Shown here piece by piece: positions 2,086 through 48,029 of a DNA stretch of 64,000 nucleotides. The stretch comes from Marsupella aquatica. Lineage: Eukaryota; Plantae; Marchantiophyta. The stretch is taken from the NCBI GenBank assembly GCA_973895155.1, contig OZ316899.1, positions 8,926,287-8,990,286 on the forward strand, in the 5' to 3' direction. A program made the position numbers and the translations under genes. The stretch's first letter is position 1, and every line of letters starts with the position of its first letter. The notes under the pieces are model-generated. The model was not told the origin of the DNA. It worked only from the letters and a program-made list of their open reading frames with translations, and did not search any database.

Positions 2086-2976
2086 CAGGTACATCCTTCT
2101 AGCTATAGATTACTCCACCAAGTGGGTCAAAGCACGAGCTACGGTGAGGGACAATGCCGCGACAAGCGCCCGGTTCTTATACAAGCAGATCTTCACCCGG
2201 TTTGGGCCTCCCTTGGAATTAGTAAGAGACCGTGGAACACACTTCCTCAATGATACCGTAGCACGGCTTACGGAGCGTTACCTAGTCAAGCACCGCAAGA
2301 CTACCCCGTATCATCCTAAGCCAACGGGCTGACAGAGAGAGCCAACGGTATCATAGGGAAGATCCTCAACAAAATGGTAGCCGCGCACAAAACGGATTGG
2401 GATGATAAGTTGTACGCAACGGTGTACTCGTATAATCTAGCTTACAAGACTACTACGAGTCACAACCCGTACTTTCTCGTGTTCGGCCAACATTCGTTGG
2501 TCCCCGTTGAGTTTGAAGTACACACTCCACGAGTCAGCATTCGGGATCGCTTACCCAAACTTGAAAGTTTGTCAGACCGAGCTTATCAGATTGAAGCCTT
2601 AGAAGAGGCATGGCTAGTGGCATCTCAACACGCCATAAAGCAGCAGGCAGCTTCCAAGAAGCAACACGACAAAGGACTACGGAAGATCAGCGTCGTGACG
2701 GGCGATCTAGTCTTGCTGTACGATAGTAGGTACATGCAATTTCTGGGAAAGCTTCATACCCGTTGGTTAGGGACTTTCCTAGTCAATCAGATCTACCCTA
2801 ACGGATCTTTGGAACTTGCGACATACGCCGGCGATTTACTCCCCACGCGAGTCAGTTACGATTGTGTGAAGAAGTACCACCATCAAGACGACGACGCCGA
2901 TAGTGATGTTTGCAAGGACACTTCACAATTAAGCAGGGAGCTATGTGATGCCGCCAGTACGGTGGGTAATGAGTGA
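2086..2976 (+). pseudogene. Ty3/Gypsy integrase (rve core plus GPY/F-like C-terminus, no chromodomain); 5' truncated, frameshift near 2330
   Basis: YILLAIDYSTKWV, ELVRDRGTHF, HRKTTPYHPK..GLTERANG, LHTRWLGTFLV..NGSLEL. Confidence 0.93.
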
Positions 2977-3214
2977 TTCAGCCTAACGACGCTTAGCATG
3001 CACGTTAGGGGTATCTTAGGCCGTAATTATGAGCATAACGATAGTATTTAGGTAGTCATTATGAGTAGGAAATCATTAGTCAATAAGGGGCGTTCATGTT
3101 CGGGCTGGCGATGGGTTGCCATTTGCACGCCCGGGTTGCGAGCGTGTAATGGGCCCTCACCTTTCCCCCTCGGGTCCGTATAACAAACTTCGGGAGGCAG
3201 CCACTAACACGAGC

Positions 3215-3322
3215 TAACCCGGACCAGCGGAGTGGCCGGTACACTGCAAGCATGAAAGGCTCGGCCTATAAGCGACGAGGAGGCGTCGGGCGATCGACGA
3301 GCTCTTAGGGTATAACAAGGGG
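3215..3322 (+). promoter_or_regulatory. Putative internal promoter of the accessory ORFs
   Basis: GGGTATAACAAG about 100 bp upstream of ATG 3417; the block aligns with the inverted copy at 55560-55740, which reads GGGTATAAAAG. Confidence 0.45.
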
Positions 3323-3416
3323 GCCAATCCTTTGCAGTGCACCAACTCTTCAGTCCACGCGCCACCTTTGACCCCAGTTCTCTCGCTTATCCTTAGTTGC
3401 CTTCTATCTCCTCTGA

Positions 3417-6035
3417 ATGTCGCACACAATCCTTTCCAGTTTGGCCATACAATTTTGGACGCAGTTCCTATCTATCGGAGGGCACTTGGCCGACTCATTG
3501 AAACTCGCCAACCCACGCCAATCGATACAAAATTGTACGCAAATACAAGAGAGCCATCCGCCTAGCAGGCCGCGACCACTATCTCCTTAACTTTGATTAC
3601 CCGTCCCAGAGTGAGCTTTACCAACCCGAAGAGATATCAGGGTACTTCTTCAACGGAGGCAACTATATCGGTTTCTGGGAGGCACTGCTTTGGCTTCTAG
3701 ACGAGGTCTTCAATATCCCGGGCACGATCAACTTACAGTGGCACCACTTCGACCACATCCCCGCTCGGGTCCGGGACATCATCAATAGCGAGTCCAGCAC
3801 TACCCAGTCTACAAGGGCGTCTACACTTGCTTTAGAAAACCTCTACCGGCACCTGCAAAATTTCATGGCAATCGTACCATCGACCACCGGTGCCAGCCCA
3901 GCCCAACCGTGCCTGTGCCCGTGCCCATGCCCGCACCAGCACCAGCTCAGCCTCAGCCTCAGCCTAGCCAAACCCCACCACCAGTCGCCCCGCCCATACA
4001 GGTGAGATCCGTCGTGAATGCCGTAGATCTCGGCGACGACGAAGAGGCTACGTTACCCCTGTTCAGGCGGCCCAAAGGAGCAAACACTCAGGGAGCCGGG
4101 ACTACATCGCCCCCTCCCCAGGCCCGGACCCGAGTAGCGGCTCCAGCGGACAACACGGTGACCGTAGCCACCCCGGCCCCAATACTAATGGCGGTGGCAC
4201 TACCTATACCCAATCAAGAAGATGGGGAGGTGTCACCCTCCCTGAGCCAGTCTCGGGGAAAGAAGATGAAGGAACCCGCAGCTGTATCCGGGTTAGTCAT
4301 GGCCATGATAGCTGCGGCCAAGGTGACAATGCACCGCATGGGGGAGAACGTGCATAAGAACATCCTCCACCCCAAGCATGCGGTGTACTTGAAGACTCAG
4401 GGGTTCGAGCACCTCGCCTCTCTCCCCTGGAACACCTGCAGGTACTATGAGGAGGACATGATAGAATTTGTCAAGAATTATGACAACATCCGTCAACATA
4501 CTCGGCTGCGGGGGAGGAATATGTCCCTCACAGAGGAGCGGCTCAGGATGATCTTTGGGGTACCCGAGGGAGATCACCGAGTTGAATCACGGGCTCCCGG
4601 GGGCAAAGGAGCCAAGTACCAATCCTTGAGTTTTTCCTCCGAGGGGTCAGTGGACAACGGGTTCGTGATGAGGACCTGCCTCATCCCCGAGATAGCCGAG
4701 CGGCTGGAGTTCCAGAGGTACGCCCTCCACATGACGGAACCTCGGGGCAAGATCTCCGCTGCCCAGGTTATCCAGGTCAAGAACTATCGACCTCGGAAGT
4801 GGGCATCGTACTTCGCTAAGATGTTCCATGAAGAGATGGAGCGGCGAAGGAAGGCGCTATACATCGGCGGGAAGACATATTTTGCAAGCCACATCAAGAT
4901 CATTCTTGAGTGGTACGCCCGGTTTGATCGACAAACCCTTCCCCGGGTCAACGTAACTAAGTTGGTCCCAACTAGGTGGGTCTTCCCGGCCCCTGGACAG
5001 ACGGCCCCAACCCGAGGCCCAAAGTCTGACGGCCACGCAGGCCTCACCCACCCCACCTCCAAAAGTAGCCATAGCCGTGGCCAAAGTGGTACCAGACGAG
5101 GCAATAATTGCGACCTTAGATGCGATCAACCAGGCCGGGCTGAGCGCAGAAGTCAAAGCGGTAGAAGACTTGGCCGAGCCCGAGGGTCCAAAAAATCCAC
5201 CAATTGGCTATTCCGGAGGAAAGGCCGATGATGGAGAAGGACACTCCATCCCCTTCCACACTACATCCCCAGGGCAAGATGTCACTACTCCGGCCCCCGT
5301 CCGAGTTGACATCTGCCCGTGCCAAAATCTGCACGGGCACAACCTGGACCACGTGGAACTCTTCGTACCGGGTACATTTTTGAACGGGCTTTTGGGAGAT
5401 TTCTCCCAACAAATTGCCCGGGATACCGAGGAGTTCATGGCCGAGAAGGTAGCCTACTTCTTCAATCAGGAGTTGGTTACCGGGGTAAAAGTAGGTCGGG
5501 CCCAGTCGGAGGCCCTTTAGAGGATAGAGCGGTACCGGGTTGAGTCCATGTTCCTAAAGGACAAAGTTGCGGCTCAAGAGGCTGAGCTTCTGCAACTACA
5601 ACCCAAGGTTGCAGCCACCGATGAGTTGTTAGCAAATGCGCACACCCTTACTGCCCTAGCCGAACAGGCCAAAGCTGGGAAGGAGGCCGAGATTACACGG
5701 CTCCGGACCCAGGTTGACAGTTTGAAGAACCAAACTGTCATCTGGCATAAAGACCTAGAGGAGGCCAAAGAGCAGGCCCAGCGTGACACTGCAAAGATTG
5801 CCACCCTGCAGACCAAAGTGGCACGGCTTCAAGCCGAAGCCGAGAAATAGATCCAGGTGATGGACAAGCTGACGAGCAACGCCCAACAACTGGAAGAGGC
5901 ATGCCAGGAGGCAGCTGAGGAGACGGACGCGGCAAAGCGAGAGAATGGATCTCTGCTAGACCAAGTCCAGCTCCTCAAGACGGACAACGACAGACTCCGG
6001 CTCTGGCAAGCACAGCAGGCATTAGCGGAGGGTTA
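3417..6035 (+). pseudogene. Gypsy 3' accessory ORF region, family A (aromatic N-domain, Pro-rich linker, Athila-ORF-like helical domain, coiled coil)
   Basis: Lies between integrase and PPT; MIEFVKNY..RLRGRNMSLTEERLRMIFGVP..KWASYF..YFASHI; clear homology to 50553-55469(-); frameshifts and stops. Confidence 0.75.
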
Positions 6036-9806: not shown

Positions 9807-10500
9807 TTAAGTGGAATGCTCAACATATGCTTGGAGATGAATCTCCATCATGGAGAGCCAACTCAGGAACATTTTCCCACTTTTCTCGTAGGCCCCGTCG
9901 TAAGTTGGAGGATTCGATAGCTGATTCACTTGGAACATACTCCGTCCAACCACCATTCCCCCCTTAGGACGCATCTCACTCTGACTACCCAGACTAAGTA
10001 AGTACATAATCTGGCCCCCCTTGTTGTGTTCCAACTGCTCATAAATGAGTTGTTGGTCTTGAGTCAACGGACCCAAATCGTCCAAGCGTCTTTCCTTTGC
10101 GGGCTGTCTGTCGTTAGGTTCTCTAGTGGACTTTGGTGACACCCCCCGTGACTTGCGGGCACCATGACCTCCCGGGGCTAAGGCATCACCCGCATTGCCC
10201 TAGTTTTGCTTGGTCAAATTGTCCATGATGACGTCCAACTTGACATCATCCTCTGGTTTTGCATCCAACCCTCTCAAGGCTGGGATCAGTTCCTGTTTTG
10301 GGTCCTGACCCTCTTCCTCCAATTCAACCTCTGAACCATCGTTGCTTCCATCCGAGTTGGAGCCGTCATTGTCTGGCTTGTCCTCTAGAGGATCGACCAC
10401 CTCCTTCCCTTTAAGTCGACGGCGCTCTGCACTTGACGTGTTTGTTACGACGGTCAACAGTTTGGCCGCCACGTCCTCATCATCCTGCTTGTAATGTTCA
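9807..10500 (-). pseudogene. gag: Gypsy gag N-terminal fragment
   Basis: NPPTYDG..FLSWLSMMEIHL; lies downstream of PBS and LTR on the minus strand. Confidence 0.7.
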
Positions 10501-10735
10501 TCTAGGGAAGTAGACCCGTCCTCCTTCTATTCTTCTTGAACTTGGGCCCTCCCCTTGGTGGGAGGAGCCTGTTTGCCACTCTTTGATTGCGTGTTTTTAG
10601 CCATGTCTCCAGCAACCAAATCTGCTCGCAATCAACCCATAGGGCACGTTGAAGCACTAAGTCCCCACAAAAATCCGTTATGATTTTTGGATTCCGACCT
10701 AGCACAACCCCGTCCCGGTGTCTATACCGGCAATC

Positions 10736-10751: not shown

Positions 10752-11845
10752 TGGTGGACCTTGCCACCCAGCGCCCTCACCAATCCCAACACCCATGCCT
10801 AAGTGCCCTTGGTGCCCAAACGCCTCCAAAAAATTCCTTGAGAAAGCAACCTAGTGCCCTCTGCACCACCAGCGGCCCTCCCATACGAAGCCGCACTTGC
10901 TCTCCAACACAATCGCTACTCAACGGTCCTCATTGTCTGCACAAGCAACCAAGCGTCTCAGTAAGTAACCCTTTGGGATCTAGATCTCCTCAAGTCTAGC
11001 ATCCTACTCAAGCTCAACAGCCATTGGTAAGTAGGTCAACGATAGGTCCTTCCGATGCCATAAGCCGGAACCAAAACCCACGCCCACTGTTTGTCCAGAA
11101 CAACTCCTTCCTTGGGCGCGGCCCGGGTTCCCCCTTGTACCTATCCATCACCAACTGACCACCCTGACCCCAGGACATGCTCATGGCCAAAGTAGCGTAA
11201 CTTGTCCTAAAGCTTGTCCCAAGCTTGTCCCAACATGCCAGGACCAGAATGGCCCCAACTCTAGCAACCAACTCCCGGTTTGCCCCACTGATGGTCTAGG
11301 GGCAGAGCACCCTTGGAACTCAACCTCCATGCCTACTTGGCCTTGCCTCCCCAACGCAAGCTCCCTTGGGAGATTGAATGGGGCTTGGCTGCTGTTCGGC
11401 AGGATTTGGCAAGCGGGCGAGCCAACACCCACAAACCTCAAGAACCCATGGCGCCCTAAGACCCAGCTGAGCTCAGTATGACATATCCCTCCTTGAGAGA
11501 TTTCCAACGCACCCAATAAGTCCTCCAACAGACTTCCCGTTGGGAAGATATCATCGTTTCCATTTGGCGCTATTCCTTAGTGTTGCAACCACTGCGGCTC
11601 ACGACTTCGGCTCGCCCTTGGCCCCTAGGGAGACACCACTCCCCTCATATAGGCTTCTGGAGACCTACCACCCCTGGACCAACTTTGGTCCCTAAACATT
11701 GGGCCTCCAACCCGGATCCTATCGCGCATACTGGGCGTGGCAGCAACTGGCAACGCCCATAACTTTCTTGTTAGGCGTCTGCAAGCGAAGTGCCTTGGCC
11801 CATTGTGATCAGGCCGACCCAGTGCTCATGCCTAGGCCCTCAGGA
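10752..11845 (-). repeat. 5' LTR of the gag-bearing element (truncated)
   Basis: 10945-11845 aligns co-linearly with 21883-22770; adjacent PBS. Confidence 0.8.
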
Positions 11846-12249
11846 CTACCTCTATGAACCCATTTTGGACAAACCCTGGTGTGGATATGCTGGCAAAATC
11901 ATAGGATGTTTGCAGCAGGGATGATAGGTACCTTGCTAGGGGCGACTACCACCATAGTGCGCACCCCACTATTTTTAGTGACAGATATGCTGACATTGGG
12001 GGTTGGTCCAGCTGATGTGTTCAGATTGGTAGGCACATTATGCAAGGATACTCCAGTTTTGGCTTCTCATGTAGAGGCAGCATGCAGTTCTAGAGCAGTA
12101 GAGTTGACACCACCTACTACTACTAGTGAGACATGGCATGCAGCAGTGGAAAAGTTGATGGATTTGTCAGCACGCCTTGCATTTGAGAGGACTAAGTTTA
12201 AACCTAACATTGTGTCATTGGATAATCAAAGTGGTATTTGACAATTAGT

Positions 12250-12640
12250 TGGGCCTACTAGAGCAGTATACCAGCCAGAGAGAGTGTTACTGGATACTGG
12301 TGCCCAACCCTTGATGTTGGGTAAGTTTGCAATACGAGGATTGGGATTGCATCCAAATGATCTGGAGGAGTGTTCCTTTCCTATTCAGACTTCATTAATG
12401 GGGGGACCTACACCCACACAAAATATCACCGGACAACCACTTGACTTGCAAATTCAAGAGGGTCATGCAAAGGATAGCTCTCACATATAGACGCGAGTTA
12501 TTTTGACTAAGGCAGAGTCCTATGATGTGTTGGTGGGATGTACAGTGCTTTACCCCATGGGATTCATCCTTGATTTTTGGGATGAATCAATTTCCTATCA
12601 ACCTGCTTGGCAGTCTGGAGATGCTAGATTGAGAAGATTG
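12250..12640 (+). pseudogene. Retroviral-type aspartic protease domain
   Basis: VLLDTGAQPLMLG ... YDVLVG..VLYPMGFILDF. Confidence 0.88.
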
Positions 12641-12954
12641 TCAGTGCAATTTAGTGGACTTGTGGGGGGCCCTAAACCTGCACCATATATTGTCTTTGGC
12701 AGCATTCAGTGGTGTGATCATTGATCCTGATTATTAGATTGAGGGTAATGCACATGCAGCAGATATCCCAGCAGTGGAGCAATCACATGAGGAGTTGGTC
12801 ATGCGTGGGCTACCTGTTGGTAGTGTTGTGACACCAGTGTGGGGCACTAGTCAGGCCTTGCCACAAACAGCAGCATGATTGGTACATGATGCATGACGTA
12901 ATGCTTTTACACCACAGCTAGGAGCATAGCAGTCTCCTGCAGGTGGGCCGGTGA

Positions 12955-13700
12955 CTCTTTCACCATTGGATACTACTCCCATTGCATGGCAATATCCACC
13001 GAAGGGTATTTGTTTGTTGGATTTATTTGGTGGGATTGCTGGTTGGCCATGTCAGGGCCAATCTAGAGCTGGAGTTGGACATGGACTTCATAATCCATAA
13101 TTTGCATTGTTTTGGGAGATGTTACGGGTGTTGCGTCATCTCCAGTTGCATCAGACATAGCCTCCAGTCTACATTTTGGAGAATGTGCCACTCTTCAACG
13201 GATTGTTGCCAGTGTTCATCAGGTGAGATCTTGGATTGGACCTACTGTGTTATTGGATGTTGCATGCGTGGATTCTTGTGCACATTGTCCATGTTTGTGG
13301 TGGACTAATTTGTTACCAGGTGAGGTGTTGAAGCGAGCATTTGACAACATCCCTTGCTTGCCAGCCTTGGTAGTGGATGATATTTTGGATCCAGGGTGTG
13401 ACCCAGCCTGACAGATCTCCACTGGCCATAGTCAATGTTGTTGGGCGCCCATGTTGTGCATTACCCACTTTTGTGAGCCATTCTGCTTCATATGCTTTCA
13501 GCGCATGTGGTCCTAGACTTGCATGGGATACAGCTCTACAACAGTTAGTAGAGCCCATTGTTGATGAGAGAGAATAGGCCATGGGATTCTCCACAGGTAC
13601 AACAACTATTGCATCTATGTCAAAGAGTTCATGCCGCCAGGTCCTTGGCCAAGCCATGGATTTGAATTGTTTGACTTGGATTGTCAGCTTGGGAGTAGTA
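12955..13700 (+). pseudogene. C5 cytosine DNA methyltransferase domain (DNMT3-like) inside pol
   Basis: Manual translation: LLDLFGGI (motif I), AGWPCQG (IV, PCQ at 13047-13055), YILENV (VI, ENV at 13179-13187), LLD...S.AHCPCLWWTN (VIII, degenerate HRPR), ERE*AMGF (IX), RQVLGQAMDLN (X). Confidence 0.9.
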
Positions 13701-13939
13701 GAGTAGTTCCGGATGCGCTCTGCTAGTGTTACAGATTATCCATTGGTGAGCTTGCGGCCTACTGAGACAATAATGGCCATAGTTAGGGGCACGCAGACAA
13801 TCCATGGACCTATGGCATGATTGACCAAGGCTGGACAGATTGTTGAGCAGGAAGGGACTGCCCAAAGTATTGCTAAATAGCGATCATTGGCTATCTCTTC
13901 TACCCTACAAAAAGATATTAGGGATTTGGTGGAGAGTTG

Positions 13940-14150
13940 GGAGCCACAGATTAGCCCTAAGTTACTAGGGGAGGAGAGACGTTGCATGCATTGATTCTTA
14001 AAGAGTTACCGGAATCATTTTGCATTCAGCATGAAGGATTTGGGGACATTGAAGGGCCCTGGTATTTAGATTGAATTGGCTAGTGATGCATCAATCTTTC
14101 GTAGACCATACCGTTATAGTGACATGGAGAGAGCTTTTATTCGGAGCAAA
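13940..14150 (+). pseudogene. Reverse transcriptase N-terminus
   Basis: FAFSMKDLGTL..IELASDASIFRRPYRYSDMERAFI. Confidence 0.8.
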
Positions 14151-17100
14151 TGTGAGATGATGTTTATTTGGTAAAAGGAGAAATAAGGGAAATTTTAAAA
14201 TTTTAACCCTTGGAAACACTAACTCTTATGACCTTTTAGACCTGTTAGCTTCCTATGAGCACTTTAAGGTGCTAACCGGAAAAGTTGCTTGGTTGAGATG
14301 GCCGGTTCGACAGAAGAAAGCCGTTTTAACCTCCCCAACCCGTGGAACCGGTTTCCCTAATGATCTAAGTCCGGTCCATTCCACCGGAGGATCTCAATGC
14401 AAGGAGCGGCTTAACCATTAAACCATAAGTCTTGGATCAGCCTGTAGCCGAATCTGAGACCAAAACAGGCTGAACCGGCTTTCCTCTCCTCACACCTCTC
14501 AAGGCTGAACGAAGTAAGTCTTGAGCTCCCGAGCGAATAGTGATGCGATGACGTTGTAGTGTGAGGAATCTCTTCCGTCTGGTTGAGGGTCTTTGGTCCG
14601 GATGAGAGGACCATTCTTGATAACTCTGTGAGTGCATGGTATAGGAGAGAATTGACTTAATCGTGTAAGGGGGCAGCCTACTCCTATAGAGGGAGGGAAG
14701 GCTGGGGAAGTAAATAGGCTTCGATCTTGGAGAAGGAAGGCCAGACGTTTGAACCGGCTTCCGCTTTGAACCGGATTTCACCTTAACGAGAACCGGTTGA
14801 GCCACCATGAGGAACCAGAGACCCCAATCTGCTGAGAAGGCGAAGGCGGACACTACCCCTGTCAAAAGCGAGGTTTGACGGTCTAAGAGGAAGGATTTAC
14901 CTATTGCTTTGAAGCCTCTAAGGCCTGTACTACCAACCGGACCAGAAGAGAAGGAGAGGTTGCGGATTGATCTAGAGAGGATGGGATGCCACAACCTACT
15001 TCTGATGACCTGGGCATGGCAGAGTGAAGATGTTATCCGAGAGATGCTCACTGGAGAAGCCCCAAGTGAGTTTTCTAATACCATCAGAGCCCAACCTAAG
15101 CTTTGGACCAAAGAGGCTATTGGCAAAGCTTACCAAGTGCATACAGATGGCTCTGGTCTACTTCCTCGAGGAGAGAACCTCACCATAGAATACTTTGCAG
15201 GAAAGATGGACGAGAAAGAAGGATGGAGTGTTAATCAGTGCATAGATGGAGACTTGAGAAGGGTATTGGCTTTCCTGGTTCCCCTGTTATACCCAGAGAA
15301 ACCAAAACGAGTCATCCAGAGAGTAGGGAGCACTATCATTGCTGCCCTCTACAAGGGGAAGACTATTTCTTGGGCTACCATCCTGTATGATGTGATACAG
15401 AAGCTGGCAACTAATCTCAATGGGAAATCGGCCACCCCCTTGTCTTCCTACGTGATTCATTTGTATGCCCAAGCAGGAGTCCTGTTCAAACAGGAGAAGA
15501 ATCTTTTGGGGACAAAGAACAGTTATGTCCTTTATGGAGTCCCAGATCCAGAGATTGTTAAGGTAGAGGACACAGAAGAGGACGAAGAGGAAGCAGAGGT
15601 ACAAGTTGTTGAACCTCCCAAGCGCCGTAAGTTAACTTTAGGAGGGAATCCGGTTCAACCGGCCAGCACCTCTATTCCTACTTCCGGTTCGCTCTCAGAA
15701 TCCTCTCAGAATCATTTCTCAGTCATCCAGCGAGAGATGGAGGCAATACAAGTGAAGATGGGTATCATGGAACAGAACCTGGCCAAGATGGCTTGAGTAG
15801 CAGGTGTTCCAGTCTCAGAATTAGTAGCAAACTTTGAGCATGTAATACAGACTGCTGGCAACAAGGAGAAGGTGGAGAGAATGGAAAAGGACCTCAAGGA
15901 GAAGTCTATTAGACTCACAGATTGTGAAAACCAGCTGAAGGAGAGAAGACAAAGGAGTAAGAAGGAGGAAGAAGCCATTGAGAGTCTGAAAGATTTAGTG
16001 GATCGTTTGGACCCTTTCCTGAACACCAGAGGTAGAGATTTGGTCCAGATAGAACTCTTTCGAGAGTACTTTGTAAAAGTACCCAATCCTACTTGCCTTG
16101 CTACTGTCATTCGTATCTCTCAAGACTATGGAGATAAACTTGAGGACTGCCTGAATGCAATGAAGGAGATTTTGGGCCAAATGAATGAGTTACACCAGAT
16201 CTGGGCTAAGGATGATGGGGAGACACCAGTTCAGTATTCTCCATCCCCTCTATCAGGAGAACCTACCACTCTTGATACTACTGCTCCTGATTTCATCTCT
16301 TCCTCAGGGACCATTCCTACCACCACTCCCGGACCTTTCGATTGGACTTCCCTCATGAGCAAGTATCCTACCAACCCGGTTCCCTCTGGCAACATTGTTA
16401 CTACCTCCACAGGAGTGACCTATGTTATAGAACCCCTCCAAAGCCAAGCACCTACTCCCAATATCACTCCAGAGATTCCTGAAGAGCCAGAAATTCCTGA
16501 AGCCATAGTTAAACACCAAGACGGATGAACCGGATTCTGTAAAAACAGGTTCAACCGGAATTTATATTAAAAAGGAGGTTGAACCGGAAATTTGATTTCC
16601 GCCTTTGTTCCGACCATTTTCCATGTTTTGTAGGAAAGGAAGGAAGTGATATGACCTCCTCTTTCACACAGTATAGTTATTTTTATCTAGTTAACCTTAT
16701 TAGTTTTTACATAATGAAAAGGCATATCTTTTCATGTAGTTTTTCAAGCGGATCTCTCTTATATATAAGGGAGAGATTCTTCCTTGAACCTCAGACTTAA
16801 TATGACTTTCATGAAATTAGCTTTCAACTTTAAGTCTCCTTCTCTTTGAAGTAATTAATCAATGAGAAGTCTATTTTAGTAATCTTTGGTAATCTATGGT
16901 TTGTGATTCAATCTTAGTGTGTGATTATCCCTTACTAGAAAAAGTTGTTTGATGTGACTAGTAATGCTTGGTTGACCCGTAGGCTGACTGGAAACGCATG
17001 CTTGAGATCATGCAAAAGCCTATTGATTCATGTTGACTATAGAGCTCTTGTATTCAATAAGGAGCTGATACAAATTCACCACTAGAATTCCACAAATTGC

Positions 17101-17580
17101 ATAGATCCAAAAGAACAATCTGATGGATTGAATAAAAGAATAAGTTGGTTCGGAGTGATTAGTACCACCTTGCTTTGACATAGGTCAGAAAATCAATACG
17201 GGCTACCTTATGCTAATCTTTTATAATTTTCTAAAGATGGCTGGTTTGAAGAGGATATGTAGGCGTCAGTTTTACTACCGCTGGTCATGAGTTACTATGT
17301 AGTGATAAGGTGTATTTCCATCTATAACTCGCCTTCTATCAGTTTTCACGCCGCTGGCTTTTGGTTTTGTTTAACACTTTTTACCCCTTTTTGATTGCAC
17401 TATGGACGATACAAACGTCATACCTTTCATGGAAGTATCATAAAATTCCTTCCATAAACCTGAGCATGTTAAAAAGGCTTGTAACCTGAGTATGTTACTC
17501 AAAAGTACTCAAAGTATCATATTACAATCTTTTAGGTCTCAATAGCTCTTAACGGGAACGAATCTAGGCTATTAGGCTAT
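14151..17580 (+). mobile_element. Nested retroelement-derived insertion (accessory ORF flanked by LTR-like sequence)
   Basis: Interrupts RT; abrupt composition change; many GAACCGG/CCGGTT motifs; TATATAAGGG near 16760. Confidence 0.7.
14807..16528 (+). pseudogene. Gypsy accessory ORF, family B (helical domain, acidic linker, coiled coil)
   Basis: One reading frame with two internal stops; FLVPLLYPEKP..ISWATIL..VIHLY matches FIVPILTP.KP..INWASVL..LFHLY at 31600-31800. Confidence 0.7.
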
Positions 17581-19800
17581 TAGGATTTTGTCAGATGTTA
17601 CATTGATGATATTTTGGTCTATTCTTCCACTGTGGAAGAACATCAGCAGCACTTGCAGATTGTATTGGAGAGATTGAGAGAACATGGGTTGAAACTCCAC
17701 CATGACAAGTGTAAGTTTTTCCAAGACCAGATTGAGTACTTGGGCCACACTATATACCCAGGGGGATTGGGTGTGCAGCAGACTAAGGTTGAGGGCATTA
17801 CACAAATTCCTTGTCCTACTAATGTGAGTAGAGTTCATGCATTCTTGGGATTGGCAAGCTACTACATGAGGTACGTTAAAGGATTTAGCCAGCTTGCTAA
17901 ACCTTTAACCATACTCACTAAGTTGGATCAGGAGTGGATTTGGGGTGATGACCAAGAGCATGCCTTTCAGGAGTTGAAAGAAGATTGGCATCATCCCTAG
18001 GTATTTTGAGAAGACCCATTTCAGGGAGACCATTTCAACTACACATTGATTGGAGTGGAGCAGGACTTGGAGCAGTGCTGACTCAGAAAGATGATGAGGG
18101 GAATGAGTTTGTTGTGGCTTATGCTAGTAGATCAAACAATTTAGCAGAGGCTAAGTAAAGCTCTTATGAGAGAGAGTGTTTGGCAACAGTATGGACTGTG
18201 TCACACTTCCATTGCTACTTGTTTGGTAACCCCTTCACCTTGATCATTGATCATCAGCCTTTCAAGTGGTTAATGGAGTCTGACAAGCTTACAAGGAAGC
18301 TTGCACGATGGGCATTGTTGTTACAGGATTATGATTTCCAGGTGGTGCATAGGCCTGGAAAAGTGAACTTGGACGCAGATGGGTTGAGCCGCAATCCATG
18401 TACCAGTCAAGAGGATGAGACTGGAGCCAGATGACATGATGAATCAGATAAAGCGATGGTGCCAGGATGGCATGCATCTGCCTTCCTTTGTTGGGTTCCA
18501 ACACACAATGGATCTGGGGATTCTACTTCATTGGATGAAGTAGATGATGAGTCTACATATATGGATGTTGGTGAGGTTGTGGTTTGACAACAAGATATTC
18601 ACAACAATGAGAGAGTGTTGGAATACTTGCGCACTGGTTCAATTGGTGGCAGTGTTGATGCCAAGGAGCGTGGCAGGGTTTTGCAAAGAGCCAAGAGGTT
18701 TTGATGGGAAGGAAACCATCTTTTGAGAGTACTACGTGATGGTAAGGTATTGGTGGTACCAAAATCATTACAACAAGTACATTTGGTGCGACATGCGCAT
18801 AAGGAGTTGGATCACTTTGGTGTGAAGCGCACTTGCAATTTGTTGCAGACACAGTATTGGTGGTGTGGTATGCACACTCATGTCCAGCAACTGATAGCTA
18901 AGTGTGTGGTATGTGATCAAGTGAGGGCATCATTTAATGCTCTCATTCCCCAGTTGCATCCATTGCCGATCACGGGTTTGGGGTACAAATGGAGTTTGGA
19001 CTTTGCTGATCCATTGCCTCTCACCCAACGGCATAATTGTTATATTTTGGTTATGGTGGAGCATTTCTCCAAATAGATTGAGCTAGTGGATGAGTTGCTG
19101 CCACATTTTTGGATCGTGTACTCTGTCATTTTGGAGCACCAGCTGAGGTGTTGACTGATCAGGGAACTAAGTTCCGTGAAGAGTTTGAGAGTTTGTGCAA
19201 GCAAGCTCTGATTGATCATTGTACTACTTCTTGTGATCATCCTGAGACAAATGGATTGGCTGAGAGAGTAGTGCAAACTGTGAAGAGAGGATTGCGCAAG
19301 TATGGCTTGCAGGTTGGTCATCTGGGAGATTGGTTAGCTATGGGCTGCCATTCCAGTCGTCAAGCATCACTTGCATCCTTCTCACCTTATTTCTTGCTCT
19401 ATGGTAGAGAGCCAGATTTGCCAACAGCTATTTGTCGTGATACTACATTGATTGTGAACTTGGATAATCCCGATGTTTGGGTCAAGGTTTGTTCAGAGAG
19501 GGCAAAGATTTTTGAGAGAGTCATGCCCATGGCCTTTGACAACCTTGTCATTGCCCAACATTGTGATACTTTGCAGTATGCCACTATTTGTGGAGGAGAT
19601 TATTGTGCGAGGATTCAATAATTTCATCCTGGTGATTATGTTTATTTACAGCAGACATCACCAACTACACTTGATGTGACCACGGGTCGGACCATTTTAC
19701 GTGTGCATGAAACAGCCTTTTGGTGCCCTGATGTTGGAAGGGTGTGATGGTATGGTTTGTGATCATGTGCGCAACTATGCACCATGTCATCTTCCAAACA
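17581..19800 (+). pseudogene. pol: RT C-terminal half, RNase H and integrase of the DNMT-bearing element
   Basis: CYIDDILVYS, FLGLASYY, HIDWSGAGLGAVL, DHQPFKWL..LARWALLLQ, H-H-C-C zinc finger, WSLDFA, VLTDQGTKF, NGLAERVVQT. Confidence 0.95.
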
Positions 19801-19844
19801 TTGATGGTACGGTGGATCCAAGCTTAGCACATGTTCATGCTCAT

Positions 19845-19990
19845 TTGAAGTGTATGTTGTGTGGATCTGCTCAGAAAACAACTACTATGTTGATTTGTGA
19901 TAAGTGTTATAGAGGATGGCACATGTAGTGTTTGACACCACCATTGCAGGTGATTTCTAGTGGATCATGGTTGTGTCCTCAGTGTTGGTA
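19845..19990 (+). pseudogene. PHD finger at integrase C-terminus
   Basis: CMLC..MLICDKCYRGWHM*CLTPPL..GSWLCPQC gives Cys4-His-Cys3. Confidence 0.92.
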
Positions 19991-20159
19991 AATCCGACTA
20001 GTTATCAATGAATTGTGTTCTCTTGGAAGATATGGATTGTAGGTAGGTGATTGATGGGACTCACTTGCACCCGGCCTCCTGATCTTCACACCTAAAAAGG
20101 TGTATATCAACCTTGTAGAACTCATGGCTAGCTAGAGTTAGGGGACCTTACTCCCAGCT

Positions 20160-20769
20160 AGGGGGACAATTGTGGGTTTTGGACATGTGTGGACATGAGT
20201 TCCACTTGTATTTCATTCTCTTGTGTTTGTGATGTGGTAGTGTGACTATGTTTGGATGTATGTGACAAGCAATGTGTGTTGTGTAGCAATGTGTATGCAC
20301 ACAACAACTGTCACACCATTCTAGGTAGTCTTAGAGTGTATCGTACTATCTAGATCCGTATGTTTGGTATGTGTGCTATATGAGCCAATAAGGTTCCGTT
20401 AGGTTTTTGTGAGAGGGTAGTTATCTCTTGTGAGGCATGAAAGGTTATCTTTCAATGTTGAGCCTTGGAGAGGGGAGCTTGTGTGGTGGCTATGGTGGCT
20501 GCAAGCTCTCTCTATGTAGCATGGATTCCTTGAGTGCAAGGTGCGTTGGCTCAACATACGTGTGTGATCGGATCGGACGGGATTGAGTGCGTATTGTTGG
20601 CGTCGATCGTTGTTCAGATTCTATTGAGATTATTGTGGGTTTTGGACATGTGTGGACATGAATTCCACTTGTATTTCATTCTCTTGTGTTTGTGATGTGG
20701 TAGTGTGGCTATGTTTGGATGTATGTGACAAGTGATGCATGTTGTGTAGTGATGTGTATGCGCACAACA
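20160..20769 (+). repeat. PPT plus 3' LTR of the DNMT element, with a duplicated 136-bp LTR end
   Basis: AGGGGGACAA; 20171-20306 nearly identical to 20634-20769; TGTCACACC at 20309 and CACAACA ending at 20769. Confidence 0.85.
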
Positions 20770-21718
20770 TATAAGATCGGGAATGTGAGATGCCTGGGCT
20801 CTTTGCAATGTCAACATTCAGATTGTCTGGCTTTTACAAGTAATAATGAGCGCAATTCCATAAAATGGCAGCAAGATAGGGGTGGGAGAAATGAGGTTCC
20901 ATTTCCTGCTGGGCGACTAGTTCTAGTAGAGAGTGTGATTTGGGCGTTTTGTGATTGGCCTTCTAAGTGCATAGCGAAGTGTCCAGCCAAAATACTCTAC
21001 ATCATTCCAACCTCTCATGACCATTACATTTATAAGCACATGACACATGTTGCTATGCATGTTGGAGGTCACTCACATCCAGCCAAATTTGTTCTCAAGA
21101 AAGATCAAAAAGCTTTCTTACATAAGTTAATGGAGGAGAAATTGAAGAAGAATCCTCATGCAATATCATCTGTGATCAAGAGTGACACAATTAAAGCTCT
21201 AAGGGATATATTTGATGACAAGGTTGTTGGGATTGTCACATTTGAGGAAGTGTGGGATCTAAATAAAATATTGGCGATCCTATCAGATTGATCAGTTGTA
21301 AGATCTATGATATAGAGCATGCGCAAGTATACCCATGCCTCATCCGACCTCCAAGTCATCCTTGATCTTCGAAAAGAAACAGTGTTTTCATTTGTCCATA
21401 GCACTCTATTTCCAAACCAGAAGCTAAATATAGATGAGCGCCCACACATTTTCAAGATGACTATAAAAGGTCCAGGGTTTGGAGTTGATCTCATTCAAAG
21501 GATGCAGCCTGGTGGAGATCTACAAGACTCATGGGTGATGTTTGATGTTATGCATTGGATGACTGAGAAGCAATGGTGCACAATGTCAGCTCATGTATAC
21601 GACCACCTATACAAAGGTCTATGCACAATTTTTGTATGCAAGCTAGTTTTGGAAGATACTGTTGCACTACAAACTGCATGGAAGGTCATGAAACAAGTGT
21701 GTAAGGCAAATGGGCTAA
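20770..21718 (+). pseudogene. MULE/Mutator-like transposase fragment with GCM/WRKY-like Zn domain
   Basis: CLGSLQC..C...CIAKCPA..HVGGHSHP, then WVMFDVMH..TMSAHVYD..LED; truncated on both sides by LTRs. Confidence 0.6.
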
Positions 21719-21882
21719 TGTGTTTTGTTAATTTTATCTTTGTTTGAGATTTAAAGTTTAGAGCAAGAGCTCTAAAGTTCTCGTTAAATCATTCAATCTA
21801 CTTCCAATCTATTCTTAAAAGGGATCGAATTCCAAGTTTATAAAGATAAATTACTATTTTTTGTTCTTTCGGTCATACGACA
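21719..21882 (+). repeat. 3'-terminal fragment of the LTR family seen at 59439-61149
   Basis: Aligns with 60980-61149; ends CATACGACA. Confidence 0.8.
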
Positions 21883-23004
21883 AACCAAGCATCTTGGTAA
21901 GTGACCCCTCAAAATCTAGATCTCCCAAGTCTAGCATCCTAACTCAAACTCAATAGACGTTGGTAAATAGGTTAGCAATAGGTCCTCTCGATGCCATAAG
22001 CCGGAACCAGAACCGACACCCACTGTTTGTCCAAAATAGCTCCTTCTTGGGCGCAGCCCGGGTTCCCCCTCGTACATATTCATCACCAACTGACCACCCT
22101 GTCCCCAAGACATGTTCATGGCCCAAATAGCGTAATTTGTCCTAAAGCTTGTCCCAACACGTCGGGACCAAAATGGTCCCGACTTTAGCAACCCACTCCC
22201 GGTTCTTGCCCCACTGATGGTCTAGGTGCCAAGTGCCCTTGGAACTCAACCTCCATGACTACTTGGCCTTGCCTCCCCAATGCAAGCTCCCTTGAGAGAC
22301 TGAACGTGGCTTAGCAGCTATTTCGGCAGGGTTTGGCAACCAGGCAAGATAGCACCCATAAACCCTGAGAACCTATGGCGTCCCTAGACCCAGATGAGCT
22401 CAGGAGTATGTAGCCCTCCTTGAGAGCTTTCCAACGTACCCAAGAAGTCCCCCAACAAACTTCTCGTTGGGAAGTTATTGCCATTTCCGTTTGGCGTTTT
22501 CCCTTAGTGTCGCGACCATCGCGGCTCGCAACTTCGGCTCGCCCTTAGCCCCCAGGGAGACACCACTCCCCTCGTATATGCTTCTGGAGACCTGCCACCC
22601 CCGGATCAACTTTGGTCCCCAAATTTTGCCCCCCTACCTGGGCCCTAACCCGCATGTCTAGGCCTGCCACCAATTGGGAATGCCCATAACTTTCTAGTTA
22701 GGCGTTTGCAAGCGGAGTGCCTTAGCCCATTGTGATTGGGTCAACCCAGTGCTCATGCCTAGGCCCTCATATCTCATTGCCGTCTGGGGCCCCCGATCAG
22801 CCAAACTTGGATCAGGCCATAACTCGCGCCCCAAGCGTCCGTTGCCCATGGCATCAAGTCCATTGGCCTTGAGCCCAAGAGGAGCTCTCACTCAAGCCCT
22901 CAAAAATCCAAGTCCATCTAGGGGTCCGGACGGTTGACATTGAGCCCAACCCTTTTTCCCCTTGACCCAACCAGCTCTCATCCAATCTAAGTCCTTAGCA
23001 TCAC
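21883..23004 (-). repeat. LTR copy, same family as 10752-11845
   Basis: Long co-linear identity; minus-strand start TGTGATGC at 23004. Confidence 0.85.
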
Positions 23005-24199: not shown

Positions 24200-27100
24200 C
24201 AAGTGTTGTAAGTATGAAAGGAAAGCTATGGAACAACGAGCATACGTGAAAGCCAAAATTGCAGAACTGGATCTGGAAAAGGATGTGGCTGAATTGTAAG
24301 GGAATGATTCTCAACTACACCCCTCCGCTGAGTTTGTGTGACATGAATAGTTCAATGTGGCACTGAAATTGTGACTGTATTCTCATATTGGAATGTCGCA
24401 GAGCAGCAGGATTTTCAAAGAAACAAAAGGAGTACGCAAGAAGGGTGACCAACACTATCTCTGGGCCTGTGCATCGGAGTGAAAGGTTGAGCAAGAAGGT
24501 CGTACCTACAATGGCAGAATGTGGAGATGACATGGATGCTGCACAAGTGGGTGCAAACACTAGACAAGAAGATGCAGATGATGAGTATTTTCCAGAGGAA
24601 ATGGATGAGGATGGGGGTTGTGAAGATGAATACATTGCAGAGCAGCCCCAAAAGAAACAGGTAAGTAGTTTTCCCAACAAGGTTTAGAGTTAAAAACTCT
24701 TGTTGAGAGGTTTCATATGTTCAGTACTACACCCTATGTACCTTGCTTAGTTCCTGACATTGTAGTTGGTGATGTGATGCAGCGTCCTGCCAGTTCTGTT
24801 TTGCCTGCAAAGCCTATGCATGCACCATACCAGCAGGGGGCTGACCTCTGATCAAGGTTGGCAAGGTGATAGTAGTGGTAGATCCCAGGCTGGTGCCCAA
24901 TACTATGGCAGGGGGCAAGTTCTAGGTTATGCCCGTGGTAGAGGCAGAGCAGGTCCAAACCCGCAGTCTCGTGGGTATGGACGTCCACCTCAACCATGGG
25001 GATGTGAGTATATATCTATATGCCAGTTATTTGTGAAGGCATGGCACTCCTAAATTTCAGACTACATATCAATTTTTGACATTGTTTGGGATGTAGTGGA
25101 TTCAGACAACATGAAATTCTGTCCACCTGCCATTGCATACAGATTTTGCCCAACCTGATTGGGCAAATGCTGGTAATGATCAGTTCCAATGTCCACAAGG
25201 ACAGACATGGATTGAACCAGGTTGGGAGGATGGTGGTGGGTCGTGGAATGAACAAGGTTGGGAAGGTGGTGAAGGTAATTGGTAGGGATTTCAAAATACA
25301 GTACCTACAAATGTTGGAAGAGGGGCAAGTAATGTCTGATCTTGTCAGCAATGGAAGAACTCATTATATGTGGAGTCCATTGACGTGGGGGGGATTCTGC
25401 ACATGTATAATAATAGAAAATGTATGTGTGTAGGTTGGACAGTCGAACCATCGACTCAAGTATTCACTAATGCCCCTATGCAGATGCAGCACGGAAGGGG
25501 GCTAGGTATGTTGGTGAATGTTCATATGTTTTCCTATAGTTTGTACTTAGTTTTCAGTACATATGTTTGCACACACATACCTAGAAAGTGACATCATCCG
25601 GCCCCTATACTTGGTTGGACAGGTGGTCTAGGGTCACAACAATTCCAGAGTGCAGTCCCTGCACAGGCATCTACAGGCAGAGCTACAGGTATGTATGTTT
25701 GAAGAATTTTTCTTGAAGTGAAGCATTGAATGTTGCTGTCATCCATTCTGCTGTATGTAGTTCTCAAGCATGAATGGCATTATATTTTCCCAGGTGGCTT
25801 CAGAACCCCAGGTAGGGTGAATGAAGGGGTGGCCAATACAACGCCCAGTACTACCGAGAGCAGTGCACTAGGGGAGGTGACAAAGAAAGGGAACGTAAAG
25901 TTGAATGAGAGACAATGGGTGGATGCTGAGTGTCCTTGTAAGAACCAATGGCATGCTGATTTGAAAGCTGAAGTATTGCGTTGGTTAGATGTGAGTGTTA
26001 TTAATTTAAAAAAACAACATCCAAAAGATTGGAAGACTGTATGTGAAAATGTTGCTGCCAAATGGAATTATGTGGGCAGTGATGATGGCGTGGACATAGG
26101 TTGCCTAGAGAGTACAACAGGTAAAATCATAAAGCAAGAGAGGTGGAGAATGCATAAGGCTTGGAAGGAAGGTAGGGAGAAGCCAGATGTGCCTCCACCA
26201 GCCAATTGTGATGATAAAGTATGGGCAAGGTTAGTAGCTTATTTTGTAACAGATGCTTTGAAAAAGAAGAGTTCACAGATGACCGAGGCCAGGTTGAGTG
26301 TTCAGAACCCTAATCTGACAGGAAGGACCGGCACTGCACCGACAGCAAAACGTTTGGTAAGAATCAATGGCCTAGCTATGTAATTTATGCTACACTATGT
26401 ACTGTTTTTTACTGTAAACCCATACATGTAAACTTTGTTTTTTAGTGTACGTTCCCTGAATAATAATGATAAGTTGTGTTTGCCATGCATGTGCAGAAAG
26501 CCCAATTGGGGCAAAGCCCTTCAAAAGAAGAGTTGAGGGCTGAAATTGTGAACACCCGGGCTCAAGAGGGTGCATCCGAATCCTCCAAGCATGTAAGTTA
26601 TATGAGTTCTGGTTGGTAATTGAATGACCTGCGTTGAATTTCAGGTGTACACTGTATATAACATTGATTGTGCATATATTGCCCAACATTTCATATGGAG
26701 TGATTGAACCTATACCCCTGTGTCATGTGGGGAGGTGGATCTTCACTTATAGAGATAAGTGGTCGTTTGAAGGCTGTTGAAACATGTCTTCCAGAGATCA
26801 ATGAACGTTTGAATTCATTGACTAACTTGTTCCATGTGAACTTCAAGACATTAATGAAAGCTGTTGTGTCAATGAGAGATAAAATTGATTCCAATTCTGC
26901 AGGAGTTCCACCATCACCACTTGAGGTGGCAAAGTTGATGCACTCTTCTGGCATGCCAACGACATGTAGGCTTGAAGGTAAGGCCTTTACAACTCTGTGG
27001 GATATGATTAGTAAATGTATAGTTTGAATTGACATTGTTTGTTGAATGTGTTATTTTCAGTAACATATATTGTGGTTGTTGTGTCCTAGAGAATAAGACA

Positions 27101-39600: not shown

Positions 39601-41426
39601 AAAAGGTAAAGTGATAACTCACAGTCCAATATGGCAGCACGGCAAGACCCTGTTTCCTCTTGACTCCATGGAGCTTTGATGGGCAGTGCTTGCTTCCTTG
39701 CTTGGCCCCTTCGTTTTTCAGAAACTCTTCAACTTCAGCAGCATAAGCCAGCTTTAGCTCACATGTCATCCTGGGGGAGGGCCTCGTGACTCTATCTTTC
39801 CATCAAACTTTGCAGCATAGTCCGGAGTACAATACTTGTGATTGGCCTCCAGCCATCTACGGCTTCCAGGGAACACATTTTTTGATAGAGACTGGGACCT
39901 TCTACAAGTGACATTGGGTCCACACACTACACAACCATGGTATCCTTTGGTCACTTGACTAGAAATGAGGCCCAAAGCTGGATAGTCATTCACTATCCAT
40001 AATAGAATGGCCCTCAGTGTAAACCACTTTTGTTTACCCGGCCTATCTAGTGCATCAAAGCACTTGACTCCTTTCCAGAGCTCTGAAAGCTCTTCTATCA
40101 GTGGGGCCATGTAGATATCTATGTTACAATCAGTTACAGATTCAGGTCCAGGAATCAGTAAAGACAGCATAATAAAAAACTTCTTAGTAGACAACCAGGG
40201 AGGTAAATTGTAATTTAATAACATTACGGGCCATGTGGAATGCTTTAGATTGTTCTCACCAAACGGGTTTACACCATCCAAGGCTAATCCAAGATGAACA
40301 TTCCGTGGCTCACTCTCAAAAGTATCATCTATACTAGCTTCAATTTCTGCCCAAGCCCTTGAATCTGCTACGTGACGGACCTTTCCATCCTTGCTCTTAT
40401 TGTCTGCATGCCAGGTCATAAGCTCCGAAATGGCTTTACATCTATACATGCGTCTCAGTCTTGGTATGAGGGGAAAGTGACGGAGAACTTTGACTGCTTG
40501 CTTTGACTGCCCAACCTGCTTGTACCTAGGTTTTTTGCAGGTTGGACAGTGATCGCACTCTGATAAATCCTTTCTGAACAAAACACACCCATCCTCACAA
40601 GCATGGATTTTGACATAATCTAATCCAAGATGACCAATGAGCTTCTTACATGCATACAGATTCTTAGGAAGCAAATGCTTTGATGGCATAGTGTGTTTTG
40701 CCATCAAGGAAAGAAGCTCATCAACACCTGAGTTAGTAAACCCATTGTTATGGCAGGTGTTCAGAAAGGTCAATACAAAGGACAGCTGGGAAGTATTGCA
40801 CCCCTCATATAGAGGCGCACATGCCTCTGTAAAGGCATTCATCATTCTTTCTTCTGACTCTTGATCCCAACACTCCTCTCGACCAGTCTGCTCCTGAGCT
40901 GTGGAAGTTGTGGACTCCAAGAGCTCATCATATTAAACATCTCTTCCCCACTTCTCTCTGGATTTTCCCTCGAAGGACTTTCATCTACAGGATCACTTGG
41001 ATGGTTTTCCATTGGCAACGTCAAATCCTCCAACAACCGGGGAATTTCCATATCACAGGTTACATCAATGACAGACCCTCCTATAGCTCCAGTATCTATA
41101 TTGCTACCCTCTGATGGAGGATTGACCTCACATAAGTGTTCATTCCACTCCTCATCTGATGTGTCACATTCATCCCCCCACCAATGTCGTTGAGATGGAT
41201 GTTGGGAGTACAGTAACAGGTGCTTCTTGACTATGTGAACACTCACACGGTTACCCCTACAGTTGCAAATGGTGCAAGGGCACTTTATCTTCCCTATACT
41301 TGCAGACCTACAAGCAGCCAGCTGTCGACGCCATAATTTGTCATCCCTAATATGCAACTGAAGATCACTCCTTCGGAAGTCTCTGAATAGCCGAGACTAT
41401 CCAAAGCCTACACGATTGGCACTCAT
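36634..41426 (-). pseudogene. TnpD-like CACTA transposase (Transposase_21, DUF4218 and DUF4216 type domains)
   Basis: KCPCTIC; IHACEDGC; HFPLIPRL; LALDGVNPF; NDYPAL; DPMHTEKN; MKSHDYH; RWMYPIERY; RPEASMAEGY; LPGQVEQVFF; frameshifts near 40900 and 39766; introns near 39622-38560 and 37645-37535. Confidence 0.95.
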
Positions 41427-47846: not shown

Positions 47847-48029
47847 ATGGAAAACACTGATGTCTCAAGGTTTCTGTTGGGCCAGTCTTTTCTCACCGTT
47901 GTCCCATATAACTCTATGTGTCATAGTCATTAGCCACCATGGAAAACACCGATGTCTCAAGGTTTATGTTGGGCCAGTCCTTTCTCACCGTTGTCCCATA
48001 TAACTCTATGTGTCATAGTCATTAGCCAC
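47847..48029. repeat. 92-bp tandem duplication near the CACTA end
   Basis: ATGGAAAACAC...ATTAGCCAC twice. Confidence 0.92.

Follow-up and report, generated by a model that had tools for sequence, protein, structure and literature searches.

A decayed Ty3/Gypsy retrotransposon in the liverwort Marsupella aquatica and its green-plant relatives, with a DNMT3-like methyltransferase and a PHD finger

Do land plants harbour retrotransposons that bring their own DNA methyltransferase, and what might such an enzyme do for the element that encodes it? The question is raised by a 64,000-nucleotide stretch of the genome of the liverwort Marsupella aquatica (GenBank assembly GCA_973895155.1, contig OZ316899.1, positions 8,926,287 to 8,990,286 of the forward strand), referred to here as the window, in which a broken retroelement ends at position 20769. 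A preliminary description, made from the letters of the sequence, had read this element as a Gypsy retrotransposon with protease, C5 cytosine methyltransferase, reverse transcriptase (RT), RNase H, integrase, PHD finger, polypurine tract (PPT) and long terminal repeat (LTR) in order on one strand. Translation and Pfam scans bear out this order on the plus strand, and profile searches find both the methyltransferase (PF00145) and the PHD finger (PF00628). It is next to certain that the family to which the element belongs is a Ty3/Gypsy family with its own DNMT3-like methyltransferase and PHD finger. The copy in the window has the following parts, where P numbers denote proteins of relatives and L numbers their loci.

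11921..12240, plus strand: what is left of the gag end and of the gag-protease linker; tblastn with P0003, P0005 and P0007 begins at 11921-11948
12269..12565, plus strand: aspartic protease with LLDTG at about 12290 and one in-frame stop (Pfam scans)
12996..13697, plus strand: DNMT3-like C5 cytosine methyltransferase, broken (PF00145, E 1.2e-7)
13878..13886, plus strand: TAG stop and the next hexamer, a predicted readthrough signal, conserved in the family between methyltransferase and RT
13938..14150, plus strand: start of the RT region, interrupted (tblastn, 59% to P0007)
14151..17565, plus strand: nested fragment of a foreign element, with open reading frames (ORFs) at 14879-15796 and 15797-16528, Transposase_32/ATHILA-ORF1-like
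17566..17922, plus strand: C-terminal half of RT (YIDD) and thumb (PF00078, RVT_1, E 3.5e-17)
18024..18338, plus strand: RNase H (PF17917, RT_RNaseH, E 3.4e-32)
18759..19714, plus strand: integrase with HHCC zinc finger, DDE core and C-terminal part, frameshifted (Pfam, tblastn)
19848..19991, plus strand: Cys4-His-Cys3 PHD finger at the end of the ORF, with Gly at the site of the aromatic-cage Trp (PF00628, E 1e-10)
20150..20170, plus strand: PPT and 2-nt spacer ahead of B1
20171..20306, plus strand: terminal repeat B1, TG...CA, 136 nt
20303..20313, strand not applicable: B|A junction ACA-nn-TGT, the predicted integrase cleavage site (same junction in relatives)
20309..20631, plus strand: terminal repeat A2, 323 nt, whose second copy forms the 5' end in complete relatives
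20634..20769, plus strand: terminal repeat B2, the right end of the element, identical to B1 at 127 of 136 positions

The protease match (PF13650, E 0.0016) lies below the curated cut-off. With stops read as X, the methyltransferase scores 31.9 bits against a cut-off of 22, having motif I (FGG) at 13026, the Cys of PCQ at 13050, ENV at 13179 and motifs IX and X within 13410-13712; the integrase is recognized by Integrase_H2C2 (E 4.3e-12) and rve (E 2e-4). Protease, RT, RNase H and a DDE integrase stand in the order of Ty3/Gypsy elements, and TG..CA termini, PPT and target duplication agree with this assignment, the window holding the right end only: TATA directly after B2 is the expected half of a 4-bp target duplication. 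Two full direct LTRs around the coding part are absent from the window and from L011, L019 and L022, and where a single 3' LTR had been described, the actual 3' end reads PPT-B-A-B. The 5' A repeat and most of gag are missing from the window, in which there is no second copy of A, and of the terminal regions only the 3' region around the PPT resembles relatives.

The window copy is dead. Compared with the uninterrupted relative L013, its methyltransferase has lost 79 residues covering motifs II and III, because of which motif I adjoins motif IV; two frameshifts and several stops were acquired as well, and both Arg residues of motif VIII are gone, while PCQ and ENV are kept. Of the motifs listed in the preliminary description, I, IV, VI, IX and X could be located, and motif VIII has lost its Arg residues. 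The complete set of intact S-adenosylmethionine-binding motifs I-III, PC, ENV and RxR, lacking here, is present in most relatives. That the enzyme is hidden from a listing of ORFs was stated correctly, since Pfam gives no hit in the three uninterrupted ORFs and finds it once stops are read as X. The deleted segment persists in other copies in the same organisms, as contigs with loose ends before 13034 indicate (seven each in runs X1 and X2). Further downstream, some 136 RT residues have given way to a fragment of a different element, roughly 3.4 kb long (14151 to approximately 17565), which is not a clean insertion and goes unmentioned in the preliminary description; contig depth in run X1, which is not equal to copy number, is roughly 2,200-4,500 for the element and 135-475 for the insert. 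The stop at 13878 is a feature of the family and not a sign of decay. A repeat of about 900 bp from another element occurs on both sides, at 10947-11842 and 21883-22769, in two copies about 83% alike; the left copy truncates the methyltransferase element at its 5' side, and gag-like ORFs lie on the minus strand at 9807-10526.

The methyltransferase is a trait of the family and not a one-off insertion, as relatives in Marchantia, Sphagnum and Closterium, selection on the domain, and sequencing depth in four public runs all indicate. The methyltransferase region of the window matches 23 longer proteins, 13 from Marchantia polymorpha and one from Sphagnum fallax, which, together with Calypogeia, confirms the occurrence in land plants that had been suggested at the outset. 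The methyltransferase domain of a relative matches 39 long polyproteins, and a profile of 10 such domains finds 532 clusters at E<=1e-30. Searches with RT-RNase H extend the list to Calypogeia, Klebsormidium, Closterium and Haematococcus, and a Coleochaete member was found as the Pol part only. Contigs of the four runs give the methyltransferase a depth similar to that of RT and integrase, and contain segments missing from the window copy. Two architectures emerge from 320 proteins: the enzyme precedes RT in 52 (type A, the layout of the window copy) and lies between RNase H and integrase in 145 (type B), the remainder comprising 46 with the enzyme alone and 77 without it, most of these starting at RT. 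A protease followed directly by RT, which would mark an enzyme-free member, was seen in none of the 320, of which 73 begin at RT. Named proteins of the type-A clade are streptophyte; named type-B proteins are chlorophyte (Scenedesmus, Haematococcus), bar one metagenome label. Two proteins, P0359 and P0318, carry the public labels cyanobacterium and Minisyncoccia, and are likely to represent eukaryotic contigs in metagenome bins. Type-B proteins such as P0019, P0021 and P0023 have an extra unannotated domain of approximately 300-400 residues after the PHD finger.

Trees of RT-RNase H-integrase (FastTree, 241 rows) place the clade on one long branch (support 0.96) within which type B is well supported (0.98) and type A only at 0.62; the window copy stands beside Marchantia, Calypogeia and Sphagnum-like rows, and Coleochaete falls outside (support 0.99), a placement that makes a land-plant host likely. 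An unfinished IQ-TREE analysis restricted to 54 of these 241 rows, without supports, puts type B within type A on very short branches. The methyltransferase tree, rooted on one distant sequence, separates A from B and is congruent with the Pol tree (Mantel r 0.79 over 152 shared rows, 0 of 499 permutations). The simplest reading of these trees, whose root is weak, would be a single old capture of the methyltransferase followed by a move within pol.

Which kind of methyltransferase was captured is indicated by sequence and by predicted structure alike. The best solved match of the relatives' enzymes by sequence is DNMT3A (E 5e-12), and in the same search against PDB, DNMT3A and DNMT3B rank ahead of HaeIII, HhaI and DRM2; the predicted model of a relative's methyltransferase (pLDDT 90.5) has DNMT3A as its best fold match (E 2e-20). 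The motif order I-IV-VI-VIII-IX-X is non-rearranged. By this ranking of PDB hits and by the model, the enzyme is DNMT3-like. Its catalytic Cys is kept in 40 of 42 type-A and 141 of 142 type-B proteins, the Glu of ENV in 48/48 and 140/141 respectively, and the motif VIII Arg is nearly invariant across the clade. Between families dN/dS, the ratio of nonsynonymous to synonymous substitution rates, is 0.03-0.2 for the methyltransferase, close to the values of RT and RNase H: 0.12 for the window against L001 (dS being near saturation for window pairs), 0.13 for L013 against L014 and 0.03 for L034 against L036. Ratios near 0.1 between families indicate that the methyltransferase is under purifying selection; among closely related decayed copies the ratio is 0.58-1.15.

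Two observations speak against activity of the enzyme. At the position preceding the catalytic Cys, 21 type-A proteins out of 42 and 64 type-B proteins out of 142 have Glu instead of Pro; a Glu-Cys catalytic loop is seen in P0025, P0027 and P0029 and in roughly half of the clade. The related enzyme of Klebsormidium, moreover, gave no methylation in yeast, a result that its authors call inconclusive (PMC5890265). Dinoflagellate DIRS enzymes methylated CG in the same system (PMC5890265). The base composition of the element was considered as a mark of self-methylation, and rejected. Its CpG figure of 0.24 is under the minimum, 0.28, of 101 overlapping stretches of the same size from the remainder of the window, but the silent-site value of 0.06-0.12 resembles those of other old transposable elements there (CACTA 0.12-0.16, another Gypsy 0.15), and its CpG loss can therefore be explained by host methylation.

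The preliminary description had envisaged the methyltransferase and the PHD finger as a writer and reader pair. Both are encoded by the family, but a conserved stop divides them: every one of the 19 type-A loci with sequence across the linker has TAG or TAA, followed by CAR-YYN, between enzyme and RT, which would separate writer and reader into products of different expected abundance. In L013 it is the single stop from gag to PHD across a 7.2-kb frame, and six proteins of Marchantia and related plants terminate 75-82 residues past the enzyme, which is the same place. The TAG at 13878 of the window is homologous, and contigs from all four runs fit CAR-YYA there; in this branch the methyltransferase is in frame with RT and RNase H but divided from them by the stop. 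CAR YYA is the readthrough signal of tobacco mosaic virus (TMV; PMC2754532), and the exact form follows the stop in L013 and L014. From this pattern we consider it very probable that the stop serves as a readthrough signal, even though the TMV consensus is missed by one base in most land-plant-type loci, which read CAA-CCC, and P0025, P0027, P0029 and the Closterium proteins run from methyltransferase through RT in one frame. The Marchantia and Sphagnum models P0002, P0003, P0004 and P0007, which are annotated as hypothetical host proteins, bypass the conserved stop, apparently via predicted introns.

The ends of the element are equally unorthodox. The complete layout, A-internal-PPT-B-nn-A-nn-B, is seen in L019 and L022, which have TG..CA ends and are flanked by 4-bp duplications, and L009, L011 and L013 show it in part; a 4-bp target duplication flanks all three relatives with both ends (L012, L019, L022). 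The B|A junction, ACA-nn-TGT, is common to L009, L011, L013, L019 and L022 and is often the palindrome GACAGCTGTC. Four of 13 chlorophyte-type (type-B) loci have the same palindrome 3' of the ORF, against an expectation of 0.025, and it occurs once in 204,891 control bases. The two bases at the A|B junction recur between PPT and B in the window copy as well as in L011 and L022, though not in L019 and L038. B1 ends in CGACA in nine of 12 elements read and in TGACA or CAACA, which are deamination products, in the other three; both B repeats of the window copy carry CAACA. We read the integrated form as a two-LTR complementary DNA (cDNA), in which the LTR would be B-nn-A, circularly permuted at the B|A junction, and by this comparison of loci integration probably proceeds through the internal junction. 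Integrase of human immunodeficiency virus (HIV) cuts a palindromic 2-LTR junction in vitro (PMC1905944). Some facts sit awkwardly with this interpretation: no circle or cDNA intermediate of the element was observed, the exact junction is absent in 9 of 13 chlorophyte-type loci (several with less than 1.3 kb of 3' sequence), and L012, despite its 4-bp duplication, and L007 stop at the first B, without the second A-B. Such A...B copies could have arisen from a one-LTR circle or from B-B recombination.

Priming appears to be internal as well. The sequence behind the 5' A complements a stretch 26 nt past the TATA box in A over 16 nt in L019, 15 nt in L013 and 11 nt in L022, and the self-complementary stretches of L019 and L013, which represent two families, differ in sequence. 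Self-priming of Tf1 and Tj1 has been described likewise (PMC6317226, PMC4600332), and by analogy the relatives' loci make Tf1-like self-priming quite probable, with the reservation that the match at the primer-binding site (PBS) extends over only 9 nt in L009 and is shorter than 8 nt in L012.

The PHD finger closes the integrase, at the place held by the chromodomain in chromoviruses; the element itself gives no chromo hit. Its eight zinc ligands are nearly invariant, and the cage position, which we place two residues ahead of the His, is Gly in 54 of 60 and in 96 of 110 PHD sequences. REM1 of Chlamydomonas is reportedly another PHD-bearing Gypsy element. The 60 PDB matches listed include CHD4, DPF3, ATXR5, KDM5B, PHF21A, UHRF1 and AIRE, and none is a finger of ING, BPTF, TAF3 or RAG2; the nearest solved fingers thus include known readers of unmodified H3 tails. 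Fingers that bind histone H3 unmethylated at Lys4 (H3K4me0) have no aromatic cage, a hydrophobic residue before the third Cys and, as expected for such readers, an acidic residue before the first (PMC3241642). The element's finger has the first two properties, but an Asp three residues before Cys1 is confined to 16 of 60 and 46 of 110 sequences and missing from the window copy. On balance, these residues lead us to favour the view that the finger reads H3K4me0. The PHD finger on a Gypsy integrase was recognized correctly in the preliminary description, but its rarity was overstated: PHD fingers are described as widespread in retrotransposons (PMC6673714), including Chlamydomonas Gypsy-7a, so that the finger by itself is less unusual than had been claimed.

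How these parts might act together can be set out as a working model, towards which, as a whole, we lean slightly: the DNMT3-like enzyme would methylate the element's own cDNA, the PHD finger would read H3K4me0, and integration would take place via a cut palindrome. Translation would yield Gag-protease-methyltransferase up to the stop, and readthrough would add RT-RNase H-integrase-PHD as a minor product, with the consequence that the methyltransferase would be made and packaged at the level of Gag. Reverse transcription would start by Tf1-type self-priming and, to judge by the position of the PPT, give an ordinary linear cDNA with an LTR of B-nn-A at each end. The cDNA ends would then be joined, and integrase would cut the B|A junction after CA on both strands, with loss of the two spacer bases, and insert the ends so created. 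The least secure steps concern methylation and targeting: the packaged enzyme might methylate CG in the cDNA, so that the copy would arrive bearing the same mark as repeat DNA of the host, and insertion might be directed away from H3K4-methylated promoters by the PHD finger. That cDNA is the main substrate of the methyltransferase we rate as an even chance. An ancient clade throughout green plants, combining self-priming, obligatory end-joining of cDNA, palindrome cleavage, a DNMT3 at Gag level and an H3K4me0-reading PHD finger, with one basal capture and a later move within pol, and hence with a replication cycle like that of no LTR element studied so far, is possible but, with all its parts together, doubtful.

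Other explanations of the enzyme have to be weighed against this model. It might target host chromatin, or the element's copy once this has been inserted, damping the element itself or methylating its flanks, with the PHD finger in the role of the ADD domain of animal DNMT3. The company of a DNMT3-type enzyme and a finger of the unmethylated-H3K4 type is what this idea would predict, type B has the enzyme immediately before integrase-PHD, and synthesis at Gag level would leave free enzyme in the cell; in type A, however, stop and RT-RNase H separate the two domains, and we consider it unlikely. We find it less probable still that the enzyme serves the split ends, where methylating or binding the CG of CGACA, beside the integrase site, would select one of the two B|A junctions for cutting or would protect the joined intermediate. 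Split ends and methyltransferase do occur together in both architectures, and CGACA ends B1 in most elements read although the elements are CpG-poor, but this is pure correlation: the CG may merely belong to the recognition site of integrase, and the window copy lacks it in both B repeats. That the methyltransferase is a one-off insertion of a host gene or a neutral passenger is barely conceivable, for its position and catalytic residues are the same across streptophytes, it has diverged together with Pol and its dN/dS is near 0.1, against which can be set only the broken window copy and the high ratios among close decayed copies.

A further alternative concerns the ends themselves, which might be copied through RNA by strand transfers in the manner proposed for DIRS/PAT elements, integrase then processing ordinary linear ends. 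The published description of related elements compares their repeats to those of DIRS (PMC5890265), and no end-joined intermediate was seen here. Yet with the PPT before B1, plus-strand priming would make B the left end of the cDNA, whereas integrated copies begin with A, and in the window, L011 and L022, though not in L019 and L038, the A|B junction shares two bases with the PPT|B boundary. We give this explanation limited credence and retain cleavage at the internal junction as the preferred reading. DIRS elements themselves use a tyrosine recombinase; the hallmarks of DIRS/PAT (tyrosine recombinase, no protease, no target duplication) are replaced in the window family by a DDE integrase, a protease and a 4-bp duplication.

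The closest known system is KnitGypsy-Dnmt3 of Klebsormidium nitens (de Mendoza et al. 2018, PMC5890265), likewise a Gypsy element whose Dnmt3-like enzyme is non-rearranged and subject to purifying selection, and whose repeats are DIRS-like in the order A-coding-B-A-B. The text of that paper confines it to K. nitens, calls the capture lineage-specific, lets the enzyme share an ORF with RT and makes no mention of PHD, moss, fern or embryophyte; the family described here differs in its land-plant, Closterium and Coleochaete (Pol part) members, its chlorophyte architecture, its conserved stop and the mechanism proposed for its ends. Later papers of the same group write 'streptophytes', and may reflect knowledge of a wider range. 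Three Klebsormidium Pol proteins fall inside our clade, one with a PHD finger and none with the methyltransferase. The window family very likely belongs to the KnitGypsy-Dnmt3 lineage, a judgement made from sequence on our side and from the published description of the K. nitens copies on the other.

Other likenesses are partial. Chromoviruses of the Tf1/Sushi and Tcn1 types (PMC6317226, PMC4600332) share a self-priming PBS and a chromatin reader at the C-terminus of integrase; as described, they are set apart by a chromodomain in place of the PHD finger and by the split ends, methyltransferase and 4-bp duplication found here. Gypsy-7a_cRei of Chlamydomonas (bioRxiv 2022.06.16.496473) is a green-algal Gypsy with a PHD finger, but its LTRs are described as almost complete at either end, and the legend for it lists no methyltransferase. 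SymbioDIRS-Dnmt3 (PMC5890265) combines a retroelement methyltransferase of proven CG activity with A-B-A-B repeats. EpiLTRs (bioRxiv 2026.05.21.726589) also pair a methyltransferase with a chromatin reader, although their enzymes are described as DNMT4-related and paired with a chromodomain and Dam. Cleavage of 2-LTR circles in HIV-1 and foamy virus (PMC1905944, PMC1180852) resembles the proposed cutting of an internal palindromic att junction by integrase; in retroviruses it is a side route at an end-to-end junction, whereas here the palindrome is permanent in the repeat and its cleavage would be the regular route. We found no published description of land-plant or chlorophyte members, of the conserved stop or of the end mechanism, in a search whose scope left aside Repbase, theses, subscription journals and supplementary figures. 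This is thus a known kind of element with a new host range, in which the replication anatomy is well supported by comparison of loci and a role for methylation is a guess.

Where methyltransferase-bearing Gypsy elements had been described from one alga, their range now takes in liverworts, mosses, Closterium and chlorophytes. Their presence in the model Marchantia means that the question of transposon DNMT function, posed in 2018, can be tested in methylation mutants that already exist. From the conserved stop one would expect the methyltransferase to be a major protein of the particle, and split ends together with target duplication predict cutting at an internal palindrome, so far known as a retroviral side reaction. 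LTR surveys would miss the clade because they demand two matching LTRs (PMC6317226). Pieces of the elements are annotated as hypothetical host proteins with PF00145, and counts of bryophyte DNMT genes are therefore inflated.

The rest of the window contains further mobile and repetitive DNA. Broken ORFs without a Pfam hit form the right flank of the element (20770-21747), and presumably belong to a DNA transposon, a protein of which they resemble. A little further on, a short sequence near 21783-21878 is repeated at 61051-61145. Pieces of CACTA/EnSpm transposases (Transposase_21, DUF4218, Transposase_24) lie at 36637-41396 and 61841-62314 (minus strand) and at 25730-26380, and tandem repeats of 464, 63 and 92 bp occupy 43225-44332, 46838-47035 and 47847-48029 respectively, the 63-bp array sitting in an open frame.

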